From UHGV virus genome UHGV-1358930: DNA of 64,000 nucleotides; one strand, given 5' to 3'. The DNA comes from a virus. Position 1 is the stretch's first letter, and each line of letters begins with the position of its first letter. Under the pieces are notes generated by a model. The model ran no database searches. It had not been told where the DNA came from and worked only from the letters and a program-made list of their open reading frames with translations. Below, piece by piece: positions 2,342-58,069 of the stretch. The position numbers and the translations under genes are program-made.

Positions 2342-2413
2342 AGTATTCAAAGAGAGTTTTGTATTCCTTTGAAACCCTCTCTGAAAATAAAAATAATAAG
2401 GAGAAGTAAAAAA

Positions 2414-3925
2414 ATGCTAAAATCAAACAATGGAAGAACATCCGAAGACTTATCAGGAGTAACTCTACTTGGTAATAACAACACTGAGTACAACTACGAC
2501 TATACTCCAGAAGTTCTAGAAACATTTGTAAACAAGCATCCTGACAACGATTATGTTGTCACATTTGATGCTTATGAATTTACAAGCAAGTGTGTCACCG
2601 GAGACACTATGATAGATGTTGCATGTAATGAAACTGACAATCCGGATGGAATTCCAATCAAAGATTTGGTAGGTACAGAAGGATATGTGTTTTGTGTAGA
2701 TCCCACTACATTACAACCATTATGTAGGAAGTATCGAGATGTACGAAAGACTGGAGAAAGTGTACCTGTAGTTAAAGTACTCATGCAAAGTTTGAGAACA
2801 GATGGAAAGGGTAACACATACTATGAATCTTCTGAAATCAAGTGTACACCTGATCATATGATATTGGTGAAAAAAGGATTCCATGATAGCGAATGGGTGT
2901 GTGCAAAAGATCTCAAACCTGGCATGAGGTTGATTGCAAATCAAAGAAGTGGAGATGTAATACGATCTAAACTTCGACACAGACTTATTGGGGAAGCAAT
3001 TTTTGATGAAGATATTATGAATATTCATCATATAGACGGTAATCATTACAATAATGACCCATCTAATCTATCTAATTTATCTTCTCATGATCATCACCAT
3101 CTTCATAGATCTCAAGAATATGGATACGATAATTTAGATGTATCATACTTAGTTGATCTGTATAACTCCGGAGAAAACTTCAACTCCATAGCAAAGATGT
3201 TCAACTGTGATGTATCTACCATTGAATCTAGAATAGGTAATATAGTTGGAAGACGGACACAATCAGAGTCATTATCACTACGAAATAACTTGTTGAATAA
3301 AGAGCGGGATAGCGAAATCTGTGAATTGTACAACAAAGGATACTTGCTATCTGAAATTGCAGATTACTTAAATATCCACAGTACAACAGTGTTAGGAGCA
3401 CTAGAAAGACACGGCATCCCTCGCAGAGAATCGAACTTCTCTAGGTACAATCGAAAGAAATTGAACCTCCCACCATTGAATCATAAAGTACTAGCTGTAC
3501 TAGATGGTGGATATGAAGATGTGTACAACATGGAAGTAGAAGGAGTTGAAAACTATTTTGCCAATGAAGTGATAGTCCATAACTGCCCAAAAACGGGGCA
3601 GCCAGATTTTGCAAAAGTTGTAATTAGTTACATTCCTAATGAGAGAATGGTTGAAAGCAAGTCCCTAAAGCTTTACCTCTTTTCTTTCCGCAATCATGGA
3701 GATTTCCACGAAGACTGCATGAACATCATCATGAAGGATCTAATTCATCTTATGGATCCGAAGTACATTGAAGTAAAAGGTATTTTTTCTCCAAGAGGAG
3801 GTATCTCCATCTTTCCCTTTGTTAACTACGCGAATCCGAAATTTAATTATCAGGATTTTGCAAAGTCTCGAATGCTGGAGGCGCTTAGAGATTCGAGCAA
3901 TAGAACAGTAAGATACGATATGTGA
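2414..3925 (+). CDS. queF: NADPH-dependent 7-cyano-7-deazaguanine (preQ0) reductase QueF, interrupted by an intein (precursor ORF)
   Basis: Exteins match B. subtilis QueF: GVTLLGN...PEVLETF...EFTS|[70 protein letters not shown] precedes the ATG at 2414. The ORF finder started 45 nt further upstream. Confidence 0.85.
2591..3583 (+). mobile_element. Intein (331 aa) with HNH homing-endonuclease and HTH modules inserted in QueF
   Basis: Begins [10 protein letters not shown] and ends VIVHN, followed by the +1 residue C of CPKTGQ. An internal HNH motif [11 protein letters not shown]...HDHHHLH is present, plus two sigma-region-4-like HTH repeats. Confidence 0.8.
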
Positions 3926-17302: not shown

Positions 17303-17879
17303 TTGTATATATACACCATATTGTACATACAAACAATGCGACTTAGCTTGTCCTAATAGAGCTGAAGTGAATTGTTGGTTCAAACGATGCCGACTTGATA
17401 TGTCAAATAATTGCTTGCATACTAATATCCGAAATATTGAGAAAGCCGAGGATCTACTAAGTAACAAGTATGGAGAAACTGTGTGGTTTCCCACAGATAA
17501 TCCTTCAGATGCAAGCGACACTATTTGCTACGTAGCTATTTGCAAATATGGTAAAGGTACTGCTCTTGGAAACGGAATATACAATCTGGATTTTGCAAAA
17601 TTTATAGATATGATCAAGGAGTCCTGGAATACGCATTTTGAAACAGATAACTTAATTCAGATGCGTGTGTGGTCTTTGTCTGCAAATTACCTAGTTATCT
17701 CAAATCTAGATTATGTTAGATTTCAAGATTTTGAAAGTCAAACGTTGCTAAGGCTTCTGAATGATCGAAGAGATTATACAAAGACAACTGTAGTAGTTAC
17801 TAGTAAAGAACCTTTGGTCGGCAGCGGAAATTTCTTTCCTAGATTGACTTCTTTGCTAAAGGGGGTCAAGAGCAATTGA
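17295..17879 (+). CDS. Hypothetical Cys-rich protein (possible replication accessory or helicase-loader candidate)
   Basis: N-terminal Cys cluster CIYTPYCTYKQCDLACPNRAEVNCWFKRC. Translationally coupled to the helicase gene. Confidence 0.45.
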   Translation: MHDCIYTPYCTYKQCDLACPNRAEVNCWFKRCRLDMSNNCLHTNIRNIEKAEDLLSNKYGETVWFPTDNPSDASDTICYVAICKYGKGTALGNGIYNLDFAKFIDMIKESWNTHFETDNLIQMRVWSLSANYLVISNLDYVRFQDFESQTLLRLLNDRRDYTKTTVVVTSKEPLVGSGNFFPRLTSLLKGVKSN

Positions 17880-20299
17880 CGAATTCAGTAGAACTTCAAG
17901 TTATTTGTAAAATTTTAACAAGTCAAGATGATTCTGAAATTGATAGGCTGTGTGCGTTTGATGAATCCTATTACGCAGTATTCAAAGATCAGATCAAATT
18001 TATTCTAGATCATAGAGAAAAATATCATACTGTCCCAGACTTGTTTACGTTCCAAGCTCAATTCGAAGACATTGTTTTGATTGATGTAAACGAATCTGCA
18101 GATTTTTTAGTAGACGGACTTCGGAAAAACAAGCAGCAGATCATACTCTTACAAACATTCAATAAGCTATCTGAGTTAGGTTCTGCAGACGTTTCTGAAG
18201 CTTGGCAGTTCTTACAATCCCAATGCGACAAAGCTGCTCAACTTGATAATTCTAACCCGATGGATATCATCAAAGAAGCTCACAAGCGAAGTGATCAAGT
18301 TTTATCGCTAAGTAATCAAACAAGAATTCCTACAGGATTCAAAGAAGTAGATGAAACAATGTATGGAGGATTGTCAACTGTTGAAGAACTTTGTCTTGTA
18401 GTTGCTAGAACTAACACAGGTAAAGCTCAGCCTCTTTGGAGTAATATCTTAACACCTACTGGGTGGAAGCGTATGCGAGATATTCAAGTAGGAGACATTG
18501 TATGCGGTAGAGATAATGACAATGGTAAAGTAGTTCAAATATTTCCGCAAGGTACAATTGACTACTATCGTGTAAAGTTTGATGATGGTACTTATACGGA
18601 GTGTTCTGCAGATCATCTTTGGGAAGTTCTGGATAGTGAACGAAGGAAGCATGATAGAAAAACTTATGGTCAGTATCTTACATTGACTACTCGAGATATT
18701 CGGAATCATATGTATCGCAGATACTCTGTTGATATGTGTGAACAAATTGAATTCGAGAGTGCTTTTGATACAGATAGTGAACTTGACGGATATTTTTTAG
18801 GAGCATTTATCGGGCATGGTAGAAATGTAGGTAACAAGCTATATATTCATTCTCTGTCCGATGTTTCAAAGCGACGTATAATTGATGCATTGTCTAAATA
18901 TCGTTGTCAATTCACAGAAAATGATCCAAATACACTCGTGATTGAGGATAAGAATGATGGTAAGCTTATCCAAAAGATGTTCGAGTACAACTTGATGAAC
19001 TGCAAAGTCATTGATAGACATATTCCGGATATATATTTTCATAGCCCTGTAAATGTTAGAAAAGCTCTGTTATCAGGTCTCTGCGATACAGATAGCACAA
19101 TGTTATCAAAAAATCATAGAGGTTGGGTTTTCGTTACATCTTCAGATCAGCTTAAATCTGATTTTGTTTACATTGCTAGATCTTTAGGTGTAAAAGCAAA
19201 GGTGTCGACTGCAAGATCTGGTAGATGGGTTGACTTAGGTGTATCGCACGTTGCGAATACGTACCACAGGGTTATGTGTATCTCAAAATTCAATCCGTTT
19301 TATGGTTCACCAAATTACACAGAATTTGAACGCAGACAGGATAAAACTAAATTTAAAAATCGCAAGCGTGTTTGCAAATTCATTGATTCTATTGAATACG
19401 TAGGTAAGACGGAATGCCAGTGTATCATGGTAGACAATAAGACGCATACATATATTACAGATGATTTTATTGTCACACATAACACCTGGGTTACTACTAA
19501 GATGATGGAGTCTGCACAAGCGAATGGATTTCCTGTACTATATTATAGCCCAGAGATGCAATCTGCTTTCATTGGCACACGATTTGATACCTGGAGAGGT
19601 CACTTCCGAAATAGCGATATTCAACGAGGTAAATACAGCGAAGACTACATTCAGTACATCAAAGACATTGTTAAAGAGGAAACTGGTGCATTTGTTGCAG
19701 AAGACAAAGATATGCCAGGAGGAAAAACAACTGTCAGGTCGATTGAAACTCTAGTCAAGCGACATCATATAAAGCTTGTTATCATTGATGGTCTGTCTTA
19801 TATGGCAGATACAGAAAAGTCTGATAGCGATGTTATTAAGTATAAAAATATATGTACTGGACTATTCCGAATGTCTAAAACATATGGATGTGCTGTAGTA
19901 GTATCTGTACAAGCTAATAGAGACACTAAATCTAATGTCGATGACAAAGGAGTCCCGTGGCCTGATATGTATTCGATTGAAGGCTCAGACCATCCAGGAC
20001 GTATTGCAACTCAAGTATTTGCGCTTCGACAATTGTACGAAGAGCATACATTAGAGATAAAGCTGTTGAAGACTAGAAATGCAAAGAATGCAAATCCTAC
20101 GTTCGCATATGTATGGGATCCAAATACAGGAAACACAGAGTTTGTTTCGGATGATGCATCGGCTGCTCCTCCTTCTGCTCCTGCACAGCCTAGCAAGTTC
20201 TCAACGCCGACAGTGTCAGCAAAGATTGTACACACCGATATAGATGATAATCTAATCGATGCCAGTACAGATGACGATCTAGATGACGTTGAGTTTTGA
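17876..20299 (+). CDS. dnaB: DnaB-like replicative DNA helicase, interrupted by an intein (precursor ORF)
   Basis: Exteins read IPTGFKEVDETMYGGL..ELCLVVARTNTGK | TWVTTKMMESAQANGFPVLYYSPEMQ, i.e. Walker A GK|T split exactly by the insertion. Downstream DnaB motifs are KLVIIDGLSYM and SVQANR. The acidic C-terminal tail is DDDLDDVEF. Confidence 0.8.
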   Translation: MTNSVELQVICKILTSQDDSEIDRLCAFDESYYAVFKDQIKFILDHREKYHTVPDLFTFQAQFEDIVLIDVNESADFLVDGLRKNKQQIILLQTFNKLSELGSADVSEAWQFLQSQCDKAAQLDNSNPMDIIKEAHKRSDQVLSLSNQTRIPTGFKEVDETMYGGLSTVEELCLVVARTNTGKAQPLWSNILTPTGWKRMRDIQVGDIVCGRDNDNGKVVQIFPQGTIDYYRVKFDDGTYTECSADHLWEVLDSERRKHDRKTYGQYLTLTTRDIRNHMYRRYSVDMCEQIEFESAFDTDSELDGYFLGAFIGHGRNVGNKLYIHSLSDVSKRRIIDALSKYRCQFTENDPNTLVIEDKNDGKLIQKMFEYNLMNCKVIDRHIPDIYFHSPVNVRKALLSGLCDTDSTMLSKNHRGWVFVTSSDQLKSDFVYIARSLGVKAKVSTARSGRWVDLGVSHVANTYHRVMCISKFNPFYGSPNYTEFERRQDKTKFKNRKRVCKFIDSIEYVGKTECQCIMVDNKTHTYITDDFIVTHNTWVTTKMMESAQANGFPVLYYSPEMQSAFIGTRFDTWRGHFRNSDIQRGKYSEDYIQYIKDIVKEETGAFVAEDKDMPGGKTTVRSIETLVKRHHIKLVIIDGLSYMADTEKSDSDVIKYKNICTGLFRMSKTYGCAVVVSVQANRDTKSNVDDKGVPWPDMYSIEGSDHPGRIATQVFALRQLYEEHTLEIKLLKTRNAKNANPTFAYVWDPNTGNTEFVSDDASAAPPSAPAQPSKFSTPTVSAKIVHTDIDDNLIDASTDDDLDDVEF
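18425..19483 (+). mobile_element. Class-3-type intein (353 aa) with LAGLIDADG endonuclease domain in DnaB
   Basis: Starts with Ala (AQPLWSNILTPTGW) directly after GK of the P-loop. Ends FIVTHN followed by +1 Thr. The block B segment SADHLW, the Cys in block F (ECQCIMVD) and the Thr before HN form the WCT triad. LGAFIGHG and LSGLCDTDS are LAGLIDADG motifs. Confidence 0.75.
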
Positions 20300-20340: not shown

Positions 20341-20514
20341 GCGATCGTTAGATAAACTAAGAAGGGAGTTAACATCACACCAGATTTGAAAATAAACATT
20401 AAATACCTTTATTTTCTTAATCTGTTCCTCTTTCAACGACCTTGCTTGACAAGTCAAGTCTTACTAGATCTCCAGAGGCGTTAATTTCCGCTTGTGCAGC
20501 GGTATTTGTTATTT

Positions 20515-21651
20515 TTAGGAGAAAGCTATTCTCAAGCCCTCGTTCAATATATTCTTTGATGCATTGATATCTCTATCATGTGTTGTTTGACAATTAGGAC
20601 AAGTCCAATTTCTAACTTCAAGATTTTTGACTTCTGGATTTTTGAATCCGCAACAGCTACAAGTTTGAGAAGACGGAAAGAAGGCGTCTATTTTGACAAG
20701 TTGTTTTCCATACCAGCTGCACTTGTAAGTCAATAGTTCAACGAATTTTGACCAGCTTGCGTCTGAAATTGCTCTTGCTAGTTTATGATTCTTGACCATA
20801 TTTTTGACTTTCAAGTCTTCAACACAGATTATGTCGTGGTTTTTGACAAATTCTGTTGACAGCTTGTGCAAGAAATCATTTCGTTGATTTGAAACTTTCT
20901 CAAATTGTTTAGCAAGTCTGATTCTTGATTTGTTTCTGTTATTAGATCCTTTTTGCTTCTTCGAGAGCTGTCTTTGAAGTCTTCTTAACTTCTTAGTAGA
21001 CTTTGAAAGGTATTTCGGATTTTTGATCTTTTCACCGTCTGAAGTTATTGCGAAATCTTTGATGCCGAGGTCAATTCCTACAACAGATCCAGTTTTGTCA
21101 AACTCTTCAATTTCAACATCTTTGCAACAGATACTTGCAAAATATTTTCCTGAAGCTGTTTTTGAGATGGTTGCCGAAAGCGGAGTTCCTTTGACATTTA
21201 AATTTCCTTTGAATTTAACCCATTTCAATTTAGGCAAGAAGATCTTGTTATCTAAACAATGAAATTGTGCAGGTGTGGAGTATGTAGCCTTATATGACTG
21301 TCTACTTGAAAGTTTCTTCTTAAATTTAGGATAACCTGGTTGCTTTCCATTCTTTACGTTTCTAAAGAAGTTTTGATACGCAGTATCAAGATCTCTAAGA
21401 GACGATTGCAAAGCCATTGCTTCAGGTTCTTTCAACCATGAATATTCGTCAAGCTTCTTGAGCTTTGTTAAATCTGCAGAATTTTGATTATATGTATTTG
21501 ACTTTCTTGCCTCTTCATAATCTTTGATGGATTTAGCAAGATAGTAGTTGTAGACAAATCTGCAGCAGCCAAAGGTTTTTGCAATTTGCTCAATCTGCTG
21601 CTTGTTCGGATATATCCGTATTTTATAAGCTTTCAGAATCATTTTGGTCAT
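20515..21651 (-). CDS. tnpB: TnpB (OrfB) RNA-guided-nuclease-family transposon protein
   Basis: N-terminus [32 protein letters not shown] is the OrfB_IS605 signature. RuvC-like and Zn-finger C-terminus [11 protein letters not shown]...[17 protein letters not shown]. Confidence 0.85.
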
Positions 21652-22243
21652 CTGAAAGTGCCTCCTTGATTTTAGCTACGCTTCTCTTAGAATACATTTT
21701 CATTGAGTAACAGTGCAGTAAACTTACGATTTCTTCAAAAATTTCTTCAGAATCAAGTTTTTCGGATCCTAGTTGGGACGCAACAACTATCTCTGTTCCA
21801 AATTTTCTAAAAAGATGATAAAATAGATCAAATCCTACTCTAGACAGTCTGTCTTTATAATTGATAACTACTTTCTCAACTTTATATTCCAATACATCGT
21901 CTAATAGTTCAAAAAACTGTTTTCTGTTTTCAAAAGAAATTCCGGAAGCAACCTCTTGAAAAACACCATCGACTTGAATTCCGGAATTCATGCAAAAACT
22001 GTTCAAAGATTCAAGTTGGTTCGCTAGATCCGATTTTTGAGATATTGTAGAAACTCTAGCGTAGATATAATTTTTTCTTGTTTGACCGTTATTTAATATA
22101 GAGTAGACGTCTTTATCATGATAGATGCGCTTACCTGTAGGTGTTAAGTCATAATGAATGAGTCCTCTTTTGCAATAATGACCAAGTGTTGGCTGTGAAA
22201 TATTCAATAGTTGTAACACTTGTTTAGCTTTCATATTGATCAC
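21623..22243 (-). CDS. tnpA: IS607-type TnpA serine recombinase
   Basis: N-terminal MerR-like [25 protein letters not shown]. Resolvase catalytic motif [11 protein letters not shown]. Overlaps the tnpB start. Confidence 0.8.
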
Positions 22244-22304
22244 CTCAAAATAATTTAAGGTTAAAAAATAATATCATCTTAATATAAAAAAGGAAATGCT
22301 ATAT

Positions 22305-53748: not shown

Positions 53749-54015
53749 TTGATATATTATAAGAATACATCATCTAGATCACTTACATTTTACAATGTAA
53801 CTTTTGGTCCAGGGGACATCAAACCTGTTCCGGATTACATAAATAGATCATGCATGATTAGATGCGATGAACCCAAGCAAACTTCTCCTAAGCCTAAGGC
53901 CGCAGCTGAAAAGCATGCATCTACAAAATCATCTGCCGTAGTAGATGTAAAGTTCAAATCTGATAAACAAATTGAGCAAGGAGGAAATGCTAATGGCTCA
54001 GATAAATATTTCTGA
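53749..54015 (+). CDS. Hypothetical small protein (TTG start)
   Basis: 88 aa, RBS GAGGTGAATAC. Overlaps the next gene start. Confidence 0.4.
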   Translation: MIYYKNTSSRSLTFYNVTFGPGDIKPVPDYINRSCMIRCDEPKQTSPKPKAAAEKHASTKSSAVVDVKFKSDKQIEQGGNANGSDKYF

Positions 54016-55861
54016 AATTAGTCAAAATTATAGCTATAACATTGGTACAAACACATACTGCTGTGTAGCAATGCCTATTACAGCGTGTTGGGGACCTGGG
54101 TACGTTGATCCAACGTCAGCAGGAATTACTGAAGACGAACTCATGGATGAGCTACGCTGGGAGAGATTCAACGCAACTCAGCAAGGTCTAGAAAGCTTTG
54201 TATCTACTTACAGAGGCCCTGCGTCACTGTATAGATCTGCGAAAGATTATTCATATCAAATGGCAATGACGCTTCTTACTGCTGGATATGACGTACTTAT
54301 CTGTCGTGTGTGCCCGGGTACATCTGCTCAAGGCGAGCTTAAAATTCAGGACGAGAACAAGCTCACTATCAAGGCCAAGTACGCTGGCACGTTTGGTAAC
54401 AATCTTCGTTGCACATTCAAAAAGCTCAACTCTATATTCCTAGTAGATGGAAAAGCGCAGAGAGTGAACTATTGGAACTGCATTGTATATGTGCTAGATT
54501 CTTCTGGTACAAAGACAGCAGTTGAGAATCTAAGCTTTGTATTTGAGTCTAGGAATTCTAACGACTCACTATATCATATTTCTGAAATTGACTCTAATTT
54601 CATTACATTTGCCGGATACGATGAACTCAAAGATTCATTGACACTTGACGGATCTGTATCTATCGACCTTGCAAACGGTTCAGACGTTGCTAACCCTAAA
54701 ACCGCACAAGAAATGATTACAGCTGCAACAGAGTTAGCAAAAACTCGTTATAGCAAAGTATATACCGATATAAGTAATGTTTCTTATCTGACAAAGCTGT
54801 CTAGCTTGAACATTTCTGATATAAATAAAGCTGCTGCTATTCAATATAGAGAATGGTGCTGTACTGCAGCATATTCCGTATTTGAAAAGCTCAAGGATAA
54901 GTTGTCATACAACTACAATAGAGTAATTGTTCCAGGTTGGGATGATCAGGATTTCTCCGCTGTAGTACCTGATTACGTATACAATGATGTAGATACAAAC
55001 TTCGTGCTATCTCCTCTCCATATCCGATTGATGGATGTCGCATACAACAGCCGTTGTGGCACCGCATACATTGATATCCCGAAGAGTCTTCCTAGATCTC
55101 GTGTATGGAACGAAGACGATAGTAAGGAAGGATATGCACAGAAGCTCGCTAGATATGTACCTACAAACAACGCATACGACCTAAACGCAAGCTTGTATAC
55201 TTCACATTCTGCTTTATTTGCTCCTTGGGGACATTATACATATGTCGGAACTTCCAAGCAGAACGTCGCATCTCCTTCGTTCATGGCTTTGATGATTGAA
55301 AGAGCAATGATTCTAAATCAGGCAAGCCAGTATGAATGGGCACTACCTACAACAAGAAAACATACACTTAAGATCGGCAAGCTCGATTATAGCGTAACAA
55401 AGCATCTGCTTGATGACTGGCAGGGTGAAGAAGGCGTAGGTGTAAACGTAATCACAGATATTCCAGATATGGGTATGAGTCTGTGGGGAAATAGCACATT
55501 GTTCGAAGTTCCTGTTGGAACCTATCAAGCTCTTGCAAATCTATCAACTCGTAAGCTAATGAACGCTGTTGAAGATCAGGCATACAGATGCGGAATTAAC
55601 ATCACATTCCAGTACAACAACGAGCAAGCATATAGTAGTTTCTACGCTGGTATGACCCCACTGCTGGACACAATGAAAAATATCGGTGCTATCAACGACT
55701 ACTACATGGTCATGTCAGCTGATATCAACGGCACCGATAGGGTGCGCTTGAATAGTATTCTAGGTACTCTGTATTTAACAGTTTCAGGCGTGGTAAACAC
55801 GATCAACTTGGATCTTATCGCACTTCCTAGTACGGTGAATCTAGACGACTACAGGGCATAA
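53993..55861 (+). CDS. Major structural protein candidate (capsid or sheath)
   Basis: RBS AAGGAGG 8 nt before the ATG at 53993. 622 aa. Flanked by strong terminators on both sides, as expected of a highly expressed structural gene. No family motif verified. Confidence 0.45.
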   Translation: MAQINISEISQNYSYNIGTNTYCCVAMPITACWGPGYVDPTSAGITEDELMDELRWERFNATQQGLESFVSTYRGPASLYRSAKDYSYQMAMTLLTAGYDVLICRVCPGTSAQGELKIQDENKLTIKAKYAGTFGNNLRCTFKKLNSIFLVDGKAQRVNYWNCIVYVLDSSGTKTAVENLSFVFESRNSNDSLYHISEIDSNFITFAGYDELKDSLTLDGSVSIDLANGSDVANPKTAQEMITAATELAKTRYSKVYTDISNVSYLTKLSSLNISDINKAAAIQYREWCCTAAYSVFEKLKDKLSYNYNRVIVPGWDDQDFSAVVPDYVYNDVDTNFVLSPLHIRLMDVAYNSRCGTAYIDIPKSLPRSRVWNEDDSKEGYAQKLARYVPTNNAYDLNASLYTSHSALFAPWGHYTYVGTSKQNVASPSFMALMIERAMILNQASQYEWALPTTRKHTLKIGKLDYSVTKHLLDDWQGEEGVGVNVITDIPDMGMSLWGNSTLFEVPVGTYQALANLSTRKLMNAVEDQAYRCGINITFQYNNEQAYSSFYAGMTPLLDTMKNIGAINDYYMVMSADINGTDRVRLNSILGTLYLTVSGVVNTINLDLIALPSTVNLDDYRA

Positions 55862-55917: not shown

Positions 55918-55933
55918 TTGAGGTAATATATTG

Positions 55934-58069
55934 ATGTCAACTAAGATATGTAAGATATGCGGTAAATCATTTGAGTCTAAGTCATCTAGACGTTCTGTTT
56001 GCTATGAGGATCATTATCATCCTTGTCCTGTTTGTGGTAAACTAACTATAGGAAATGATATGCAACATTTGAATTCTTGCTGCTCAATCGAGTGTTCTAG
56101 GAAGAAAGCGTCTGATACTACGCATGAAACATACGATGAATGGCCTTCCAATTCTAGTAGTGCGAAGCAAAAGAGAGCAGAAACTAATGTGCAGAAATAT
56201 GGAGTCGATAATCCTTCTAAGCTACCTGATGTGAAATCGCAGATATCTAGTAGTTTGAAAGCTACGTGGCAAACTCAAAAAGATAACATACTATCCAAAA
56301 CTGAACAAACTTGCTTAGACAAGTACGGTCAAACACACTACATGAAATCTGATGAAGGCAAACAACACGTATCTGATGTATTTACTGAAAAGTATGGAGT
56401 TAAAACCAGCTTGCTGTCCGATATTGTGAGAGATAAGATAGAGAAAACCAACCTGGAAAAATATGGATCTGCGAATCCACTTTCATCTGCAGATATACGA
56501 GACAAAGTAAAGCAGACCAATATGCTTCGATACGGATATCAATACTCTGCTAGTTCACCAGAAATTAGAGAAAAGATGAAATCTACTATGGTGAAACGAT
56601 ACGGTGTGAAATATCCGCTTCAGTCTGATGTGATATTGAAACGTGCCAAGGAAACATTCTCAAGTCATATGGAGTCAGAATCGTTTAGGCAGCAGAGGCA
56701 AGAGAATACAGAAGCTACTAACATGGCTCGATATGGGACTAAATCTGCAATGTCGAACATCGAAATTCAAGCACGCATTCAGTTCACTAATTTATCTCGA
56801 TATGGTGTAGCAAGCTATACAGCTTCTGACGATTTCAAACAAAAACGCCTGAAAACTTTCAAGATAAAATATGGATCAGATAATCCGATGAAGTCTGAAG
56901 CAGTCAAACAACGATTATCGGAAACGATGAAATCTAGATACGGTGTTCAACATGCAAGTCAACTGAACATGCCTGATATATCTAAAATTGACGAGTTGAT
57001 TAAGTTTAGGTCAGATCCTGCTCAATACATATCTTCATTACCCGAAAGCGAAAGAACAGAATCAATCATAGCTGATAAACTTGGTGTCACTTCAAGCGCT
57101 GTTTCTAACTATGTTGTACAAGATAATCTCCATCATCTAGTAAGTTATAGCAAAAGCACCGTGGAAGATGAAGTTGCTAATTTTTTGAGTCAGAACAATG
57201 TCAGTTTCCTTCGTAACTGTAGATCTGTCATATCTCCGTATGAACTCGATTTTTATTTACCTGATAGACAGTTAGCTATTGAATGCAATCCGACGGTAAC
57301 GCATAACTCTTCATTTCATGATCCGTGGAATGGCAATGCGAAATCCCCTTCATACCACAAAATGAAAACAGATATGTGCGAGAATGACGGCATATTTCTA
57401 TTTCATATTTTTGGCTATGAATGGACGTATAGAAAAAATATAATATTATCTATGTTGTCTTCCTTACTACATAGATCCAGTCGAAAAATCTACGCCAGAA
57501 ACACATATGTGGCTGAAATTGATCCAGCAGAATGCGCTGAATTTTTAGAATCTAATCATAGACAAGGCGGAAGATTGTCAGCAAGTATTCGATTAGGACT
57601 GAGATCTAAGGACACCAATGAGTTAGTATCTGTAATGACATTCAACAAAATTAGAAATACTATCGGATATACAGGTCAAGCAGGTGTAGAACTATCTAGA
57701 TTCTGTTCTTCACTCAACACGTCAGTTGTAGGAGGAGCCAGTAAGCTTTTTACACATTATCTGAACAACATACATTCCGATGAATTAGGTAAAATTATTT
57801 CGTTTTCTGATAGAGCACATACACGAGGTAACTTATATTCAAAGTTAGGATTTGTACCTGTTAATGTATCAAATCCAGGATACGTCTGGGTAAGTATGGT
57901 AGATGATTCATATTACAATAGAGTATCTTGTCAGAAACGTAATTTACAGAAGCTGTTTAACGATACTCGTATAGACGTTGATAATCAAACAGAACGTCAG
58001 ATAATGGAATCTCATGGCTATGCTCAGGTGTTTGATTCTGGAACAATCAGATGGGAATACCTTAACTGA
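55934..58069 (+). CDS. Paralog A of a zinc-ribbon / KYG-repeat / conserved C-terminal-domain protein family
   Basis: N-terminus CKICGKSF..C..H..CPVCGK...CCSIEC. About ten tandem ~37-aa units [KR]YG.....S.E[IV]R.K.K.T. C-terminus shares LAIECNPTVTHNS..PWNG..YH, RQGGRL, VVGGASKLF and FSDR..GN.YSK.GF motifs with the 60756-62414 product. Confidence 0.7.
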   Translation: MSTKICKICGKSFESKSSRRSVCYEDHYHPCPVCGKLTIGNDMQHLNSCCSIECSRKKASDTTHETYDEWPSNSSSAKQKRAETNVQKYGVDNPSKLPDVKSQISSSLKATWQTQKDNILSKTEQTCLDKYGQTHYMKSDEGKQHVSDVFTEKYGVKTSLLSDIVRDKIEKTNLEKYGSANPLSSADIRDKVKQTNMLRYGYQYSASSPEIREKMKSTMVKRYGVKYPLQSDVILKRAKETFSSHMESESFRQQRQENTEATNMARYGTKSAMSNIEIQARIQFTNLSRYGVASYTASDDFKQKRLKTFKIKYGSDNPMKSEAVKQRLSETMKSRYGVQHASQLNMPDISKIDELIKFRSDPAQYISSLPESERTESIIADKLGVTSSAVSNYVVQDNLHHLVSYSKSTVEDEVANFLSQNNVSFLRNCRSVISPYELDFYLPDRQLAIECNPTVTHNSSFHDPWNGNAKSPSYHKMKTDMCENDGIFLFHIFGYEWTYRKNIILSMLSSLLHRSSRKIYARNTYVAEIDPAECAEFLESNHRQGGRLSASIRLGLRSKDTNELVSVMTFNKIRNTIGYTGQAGVELSRFCSSLNTSVVGGASKLFTHYLNNIHSDELGKIISFSDRAHTRGNLYSKLGFVPVNVSNPGYVWVSMVDDSYYNRVSCQKRNLQKLFNDTRIDVDNQTERQIMESHGYAQVFDSGTIRWEYLN

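Follow-up and report, generated by a model that had tools for sequence, protein, structure and literature searches.

The window, the whole 64,000-nucleotide stretch of virus genome UHGV-1358930 analysed here, carries the gene of a DnaB-like replicative helicase whose Walker A motif (P-loop) is interrupted between its Gly-Lys and its Thr. The interrupting segment is, in all likelihood, a class 3 intein, that is, one of the Trp-Cys-Thr (WCT) type, with a LAGLIDADG homing-endonuclease domain. The parts of the gene and of the insert are as follows, with insert residues counted from its first Ala and block positions written as B7, F4 and so on.

17876..20299, plus strand: open reading frame (ORF) of the precursor, a DnaB-like replicative helicase with the putative intein, 807 residues, TTG start.
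17876..18424, plus strand: N-extein, 183 residues, ending in ...VVARTNTGK, the first half of Walker A.
18425..19483, plus strand: putative intein, Ala1 to Asn353, 1059 nucleotides, 353 residues, in frame, ORF codons 184-536.
18425..18745, plus strand: N-terminal half of the predicted splicing (HINT) domain, residues 1-107, with block A AQPLWSNILTPTGW; placed by alignment with the prototype MP-Be and with 17 relatives, by phmmer matches to 6rix and 6riz, and by a predicted local distance difference test (pLDDT) of 94-98.
18605..18622, plus strand: block B, SADHLW, residues 61-66 (Ser61 is B7, His64 is B10, Trp66 is B12).
18746..19366, plus strand: predicted LAGLIDADG homing-endonuclease domain, residues about 108-314, from Pfam Hom_end and Foldseek.
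18797..18820, plus strand: LAGLIDADG motif 1, LGAFIGHG, with His131 at the position of the catalytic Asp.
19067..19096, plus strand: LAGLIDADG motif 2, LLSGLCDTDS, with the catalytic Asp223 kept.
19367..19483, plus strand: C-terminal splicing half, residues 315-353, with block F ECQCIMVDNKTHTY (Cys331, an extra Cys, is F2; Cys333, at 19421..19423, is F4; His341 is F13) and block G FIVTHN (Thr351, which is G5, then His352 and Asn353).
19484..20299, plus strand: C-extein, 271 residues and the stop, its first residue Thr+1 being the Walker A Thr; acidic tail ...DDDLDDVEF.

In the letters TTGA the start of the helicase ORF and the stop codon of the gene before it overlap, and homologues begin with MTNS or MTSS at the matching position. 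Read unspliced, the 807-residue ORF matches Pfam DnaB_C at 1.4e-12 over profile positions 36-239 only. Conceptual splicing restores the GK[ST] of Walker A (VVARTNTGK|TWVTT), and the resulting 454-residue sequence matches the same profile at 9.8e-19 (68 bits, cut-off 27) over positions 2-240, unbroken across the junction. The helicase scores under the cut-offs of the NCBIfam phage_DnaB and DnaB equivalog models, so that "DnaB-like" is the right label. The original prediction, which was made from the letters alone and placed a class 3 LAGLIDADG intein in a DnaB P-loop, is upheld in all three of its elements (class, endonuclease domain and site), so far as sequences and predicted structures can tell.

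The insert opens with AQPLWSNILTPTGW, its first codon GCT encoding Ala, immediately behind ...VVARTNTGK, and it closes with ...DDFIVTHN, after which the C-extein continues as TWVTTKMMESAQ, with ACC at 19484..19486 as the codon of Thr+1. A search with the spliced 454-residue sequence as query returned 1,136 relatives at E<=1e-20. The nearest of these (P0016, 457 residues, intein-less) is 72% identical and reads ARTNSGK|SWVCTK, and because it aligns gap-free over the junction, the insertion point is the Lys-Thr/Ser bond of Walker A and intein residue 1 is Ala. In the DNA of an intein-less allele of this type the site would read ...ACNTCNGGNAAR|WSNTGGGTN..., and comparison with intein-less alleles uncovers no repeats among the junction residues. 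As judged from these sequences, both boundaries are unambiguous. The claims that the insertion lies exactly between GK and T, and that the insert starts with Ala and not with Cys or Ser, are thus borne out twice over, by the ORF reading with its GCT codon and by the intein-less GK|SWV alleles.

Class 3 inteins, as defined in 2010, combine a non-nucleophilic N-terminus, the WCT triplet and Ser or Thr at +1 (PMC2807308), and the window intein displays every one of these sequence features. The strings that had been quoted for it, SADHLW (61-66), ECQCIMVD (330-337) and THN (351-353), are all found in the insert. Their register was examined in a MAFFT alignment of 19 inteins, comprising that of the window, the MP-Be prototype, gp42 of Clostridium phage phi8074-B1 and 16 metagenomic relatives. 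MP-Be was recovered from gp11 of phage Bethlehem (AY500153) as 341 residues from Pro1, with S62, H65, W67, C320, T339, H340 and N341, a numbering identical to that published (PMC2807308). Residues S61, H64, W66, C333, T351, H352, N353 and T+1 of the window share columns with the prototype; in particular, Trp66, Cys333 and Thr351 align with W67, C320 and T339, and His64 with H65. The triad read in the original prediction (Trp in block B, Cys in block F, Thr before the final His-Asn) is therefore in prototype register, and the block alignment proposed there as a check places no Cys or Ser at position 1. The His-Trp of block B also aligns with HQW of MchDnaB-1 in phmmer. Cys F4, Thr G5 and the His and Asn that follow are invariant in all 19 family members and Trp B12 is present in 17; Cys333 is likewise invariant in 15 of 15 close variants. 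In two members (P0002 and P0012) B12 is Asn and not Trp (HLN), while Cys F4, Thr G5 and His-Asn are all retained, so that their triplet is of an "NCT" type.

The same alignment bears on two other classes to which the insert might belong. Were it a class 1 intein with a misplaced start, its real first residue would be Cys, Ser or Thr, and Ser6 does lie near the N-terminus; in P0009, of the same family, the first residue is Ser (SNVCSSK). P0009 is, however, the sole aligned member with a nucleophile at position 1; AQPL stands directly after GK in 12 of the 19 and Ala is first in 13, MchDnaB-1 runs in register from position 3, and no positive support for a displaced start was found. The intein-less alleles refute it, their site being exactly K|S/T and free of junction repeats, and its probability is practically nil. 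In a class 2-like route, Thr+1 would attack the N-terminal amide directly and Cys333 would have a structural or assisting part only. Ala1 also occurs in the class 2 inteins of KlbA (PMC2807308), which gives the proposal some footing. Class 2 inteins, though, are without a WCT triplet and are so far known only in KlbA proteins (PMC3196547), whereas the window intein has the full triplet. Further, Cys F4 is invariant in 19 divergent relatives and in the 15 close variants, and it has been obligate in each WCT intein assayed (PMC2807308, PMC3196547). A class 2-like route is accordingly considered extremely improbable, and class 3 remains the favoured assignment.

Homology and predicted structure are those of an intein with an inserted endonuclease. 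In tblastn the window intein matches the MP-Be prototype over its full length (E=3e-17, 25% identity), and phmmer against all solved structures gives five significant matches, among them the class 3 inteins MchDnaB-1 (6rix and 6riy, 6e-8; 6rix in register from position 3 onward) and M. smegmatis DnaB (6bs8, 8.5e-6). The top match in the PDB, 6riz, was dropped as support, since its Trp and Cys had been grafted onto gp41-1 by engineering (PMC7664689). An AlphaFold2 model built from an 18-row alignment (pLDDT 89.3, predicted template modelling score 0.89) predicts a bipartite fold of the PI-SceI architecture, with a HINT splicing domain split by an endonuclease domain. Searched against the PDB with Foldseek, the whole chain retrieves PI-SceI (template modelling score 0.68-0.74, E about 1e-16), TliVMA, PhoVMA and PI-PfuI, and the middle domain retrieves I-DmoI and I-Tsp061I; the mini-inteins ranked highest are MchDnaB-1 and Msm DnaB, both of class 3.

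The LAGLIDADG endonuclease that had been predicted within the insert is upheld by Pfam Hom_end (1.4e-5, 25.6 bits against a cut-off of 21.1), by two motifs and by the fold matches to PI-SceI, PI-PfuI and I-DmoI. By offset, motif 2 falls near PI-SceI residue 326, inside a weak phmmer match (query 198-262, chain 301-365). Relatives read LGxLLGDG at motif 1, where the window has His for the first catalytic Asp; an acidic residue thus ends motif 2 and is missing from the end of motif 1. The metagenomic cluster to which the exact window protein belongs counts 143 proteins (at least 90% identity), and each of the 15 that were read has His131. Judged by these motifs, the endonuclease may be a nickase, weakened or inactive. 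The intein looks fixed in this lineage.

Several considerations weigh against the class 3 LAGLIDADG assignment as set out above, which itself rests on a sequence signature and on homology. When A1, W, C and T were grafted onto the class 1 intein gp41-1, the product did not splice (PMC7664689), and the WCT signature is therefore necessary but not sufficient. Natural class 1 gp41-1 (6qaz) matches the window intein in phmmer at 6.7e-7, similar to the solved class 3 inteins, so that overall similarity does not separate the classes. The Pfam models Hint_2 and Hom_end_hint and the NCBIfam model intein_Cterm all score under cut-off for this intein, which is also why public copies of the protein carry the label "replicative DNA helicase" only. 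Finally, with one catalytic Asp missing from the motifs, present-day mobility is doubtful.

Whether the insert is functional was approached through natural variation, using 15 members of the 143-member cluster for diversity and five alleles (that of the window and those of sister contigs L009-L012) for the ratio of nonsynonymous to synonymous substitution rates (dN/dS, Nei-Gojobori). The pattern is pertinent to the idea of a dead, non-splicing insert in an inactive helicase for which a host gene or another gene substitutes, comparable to the pseudo-intein of Arthrobacter Arth_1007. Pseudo class 3 inteins do exist (PMC3196547), and both the substitution at His131 and the higher amino-acid diversity per site in the endonuclease domain (0.077, against 0.0035 in the C-extein; n=15) would fit such decay. 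Yet every catalytic splicing residue is intact and invariant in the 15 natural variants, and the Arthrobacter pseudo-intein is without Cys F4, which the window intein has. Among the five alleles dN/dS comes to 0.024-0.036 for the exteins (0.02-0.04 for both, rounded) and 0.07 for the splicing domain, at a dS of 0.09-0.15, and to 0.17 for the endonuclease domain; the C-terminal splicing segment shows zero nonsynonymous differences. Given that low dN/dS holds in exteins and splicing domain alike, helicase and splicing function both appear to be maintained; a dead insert is very unlikely, and the strong purifying selection argues that the intein splices into a working helicase. The endonuclease domain is relaxed yet still constrained. 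An earlier interpretation of it as freely decaying, taken from its 20-fold higher diversity, was dropped in view of the dN/dS of 0.17.

The endonuclease domain (18746..19366) also stands out among the five alleles in its synonymous divergence, with a dS of 0.28 against 0.09-0.15 in splicing domain and exteins, about twofold. Recombination or co-conversion could have homogenised the flanks.

Splicing chemistry and endonuclease activity are here inferred and not demonstrated, the mechanism being drawn by homology from MP-Be, Dra Snf2 and Msm DnaBi1 with the mycobacterial DnaB inteins. On that model the precursor would be unable to bind ATP because its Walker A motif is split. The thiol of Cys333 (F4) would attack the Lys(-1)-Ala1 bond, aided by His64, Trp66 and Thr351, to give a branched thioester at block F; the hydroxyl of Thr+1 would then take over the N-extein, in the branched ester that is standard at block G. 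Cyclisation of Asn353, aided by His352 and His341, would free the intein, and an O-to-N shift would leave ...TNTGK-TWV... with an intact P-loop and an active helicase. The endonuclease domain, for its part, would once have carried the element into empty helicase alleles by homing.

Block F of the window intein contains a Cys331-Gln-Cys333 pair (19415..19423), Cys331 standing two residues ahead of the catalytic Cys333. An equivalent of Cys331 is found in 15 of the 19 family members and in neither MP-Be nor MchDnaB-1. By analogy with the Cys48-Cys118 redox switch of Msm DnaBi1 (PMC6195587), the two residues could, speculatively, form a redox trap or disulfide pair, and if they did, the helicase would mature, and the phage therefore replicate, only in a reducing environment. 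Cys48, the redox partner in Msm DnaBi1, has no obvious counterpart in the window intein, which has the extra Cys of CQC instead. A wider proposal would make the intein more than a passive selfish insert, with such a redox trap and with an endonuclease retained as a natural nickase or in some other role, since His131 is fixed and the domain is nevertheless under purifying selection (dN/dS 0.17). This proposal is very improbable.

With respect to known systems, the closest parallel is mycobacterial. The original prediction had held that the class was first defined in a mycobacteriophage DnaB, and this is mistaken: the protein that MP-Be interrupts in phage Bethlehem is the large subunit of the terminase, and the site is not a P-loop. 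The host gene adjoins that of the portal protein, and Pfam TerL_nuclease matches the extein; Kelley et al. 2016 name the site TerL1-c and place it in "a poorly conserved helix". MP-Be and the window intein share HINT and LAGLIDADG architecture (341 and 353 residues), and all diagnostic residues align; MP-Be begins with Pro where the window intein begins with Ala, and it has both catalytic Asp residues (LGLWLGDG, LLRGLIDSDG), of which the window intein has lost the first, and an endonuclease of proven activity. The true helicase P-loop parallel is that of the mycobacterial DnaB-b inteins of M. smegmatis, M. leprae and M. chimaera (DnaBi1, MchDnaB-1; 6bs8, 6rix), which belong to class 3, Msm DnaBi1 being placed at the P-loop of DnaB (PMC6195587). 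They are found in the same DnaB family at the P-loop site after GK, share with the window intein Ala1, the WCT triplet, His-Asn and Ser or Thr at +1, and are its best matches among solved sequences. They differ in being mini-inteins of cellular DnaB, whereas the window intein has a full LAGLIDADG domain and lies in a phage helicase.

Likewise, the suggestion that a low-GC (guanine-plus-cytosine) phage would extend the known distribution of class 3 does not hold. The locus of Clostridium phage phi8074-B1 has a GC content of 34.6%, and a survey of nr from 2020 counted 1,701 class 3 inteins, LAGLIDADG motifs being present in 82.5% (PMC7891396). Most class 3 inteins lie in the P-loops of helicase-like ATPases (PMC2807308). 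In tblastn 851 records of cultured phages, from many hosts, match the window intein at E<=1e-3, and three of them were checked individually: the replicative helicase of Xanthomonas phage LucasX, annotated as "intein-containing" (KGK|AQPL...HLW...AQCI...VTHN|T), the primase-helicase of Vibrio phage YC (VGK|AQPL...) and gp42 of phi8074-B1 (GNGK|AQPL...HLW...ECQCI...VTHN|T). Such "AQPL" phage inteins share with the window the plan GK|AQPL...HLW...(C)QCI...VTHN|T, a length of about 345-350 residues, a LAGLIDADG domain and about 30% identity; they differ in exteins and phage lineages and in having kept the Asp of LAGLIDADG motif 1. The same intein type also stands after GK in unrelated proteins with a P-loop: an IstB/DnaC-like loader, PhoH, AAA_24, an SF2 helicase and a BrxC-like protein. 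Within this large and well-studied family the window intein is thus ordinary. Class 3 inteins have been on record in the P-loops of helicase-like ATPases, phage and bacterial, since 2010; they number thousands and structures have been solved, so that the discovery value of the window intein is small. More practically, standard annotation models miss the intein, and such precursors are consequently mis-sized in phage annotation.

The family also has members outside P-loops: P0010, a CHAP-domain protein, carries the intein behind ...VEGN, and P0015, which resembles PD-(D/E)XK nucleases, behind ...DHKDE.

At this one site of the helicase gene the intein occurs in several states, from absent to full-length. 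Empty alleles are represented by P0016, P0018 and P0022, and full-length inteins by the window's cluster and the fragments P0003 and P0004. Alleles with an endonuclease remnant are P0056 (199 residues), P0006 (201) and P0131 (217), and those with a mini-intein are P0001 (152), P0080, P0119 and P0077 (175 each) and P0054 (176). In the sister lineages with a mini-intein or remnant (P0001, P0054, P0080/P0119, P0056, P0006 and P0131) the splicing blocks are 47-55% identical to those of the window and have the same WCT residues, the endonuclease being deleted or a remnant (152-217 residues in total) where the window allele is the full-length form. Among the best 120 cluster representatives, 63 have the length of an intein-less protein (446-457 residues) and 57 that of one with a mini-intein or remnant (628-670 residues), nine of these having been verified by sequence and the others classed by length. 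The allele series is that of a textbook homing cycle. It could serve studies of that cycle, comprising as it does empty, full-length, remnant and mini forms (152-217 residues) at one site, and protein engineers could draw on it for compact mini-inteins of class 3 (Ala1, Thr+1).

In composition the insert (36.5% GC) is not different from its surroundings (38.5% in the exteins, 36.7% in the window). A recent horizontal arrival of the intein was considered and rejected on that ground, 36.5% standing against 38.5% in the exteins.

The presence of a primase gene downstream of the helicase, of a tail sheath gene at 53972..55861 and of sister contigs of ~160 kb indicate that the source is an uncultivated contractile-tailed phage of roughly 160 kb. 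The helicase gene and positions 1-25000 of the window gave no nucleotide match to 50,697 phage records in blastn and megablast, so that the phage has no cultured close relative among them.

At 20240..20296 the helicase closes with an acidic stretch whose last residue is Phe (...DDDLDDVEF), and tails of this kind are kept in every homologue seen (..DEDVEF, ..DDIEF, ..DDEVEF). Acidic C-terminal tails that end in Phe and contact the DNA polymerase are a feature of T7 gp4 and gp2.5, and the tail of the window helicase may be of a similar kind.

Other mobile or endonuclease-like elements lie elsewhere in the window. Between helicase and primase stands an IS607-family element of roughly 1.93 kb (20376..22304), with two genes on the minus strand (20515..21651 and 21623..22243) for a serine recombinase (Resolvase and MerR) and TnpB (OrfB_IS605 and a Cas12f1-like TNB). 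Four sister contigs (L009-L012) are without the element and have 75 nucleotides between helicase stop and primase ATG; the insertion is exactly at the primase start codon, and the primase ORF of the window now begins at 22296. A second intein, of class 1 type, is found in the gene for QueF (7-cyano-7-deazaguanine reductase; 2369..3925, plus strand), at about 2591..3583 (331 residues). It reads EFTSK|CVTGDTM...TPDH...EVIVHN|CPKTGQPD, with an HNH-type endonuclease and a helix-turn-helix and no LAGLIDADG, and the Cys at +1 belongs to CPxTGQPD, a conserved motif of QueF. Directly behind the tail sheath gene lies a free-standing homing-endonuclease-like ORF of 712 residues (55931..58069, plus strand; phrog_3339, 1.5e-118), which contains numerous tandem "KYG/RYG" repeats.

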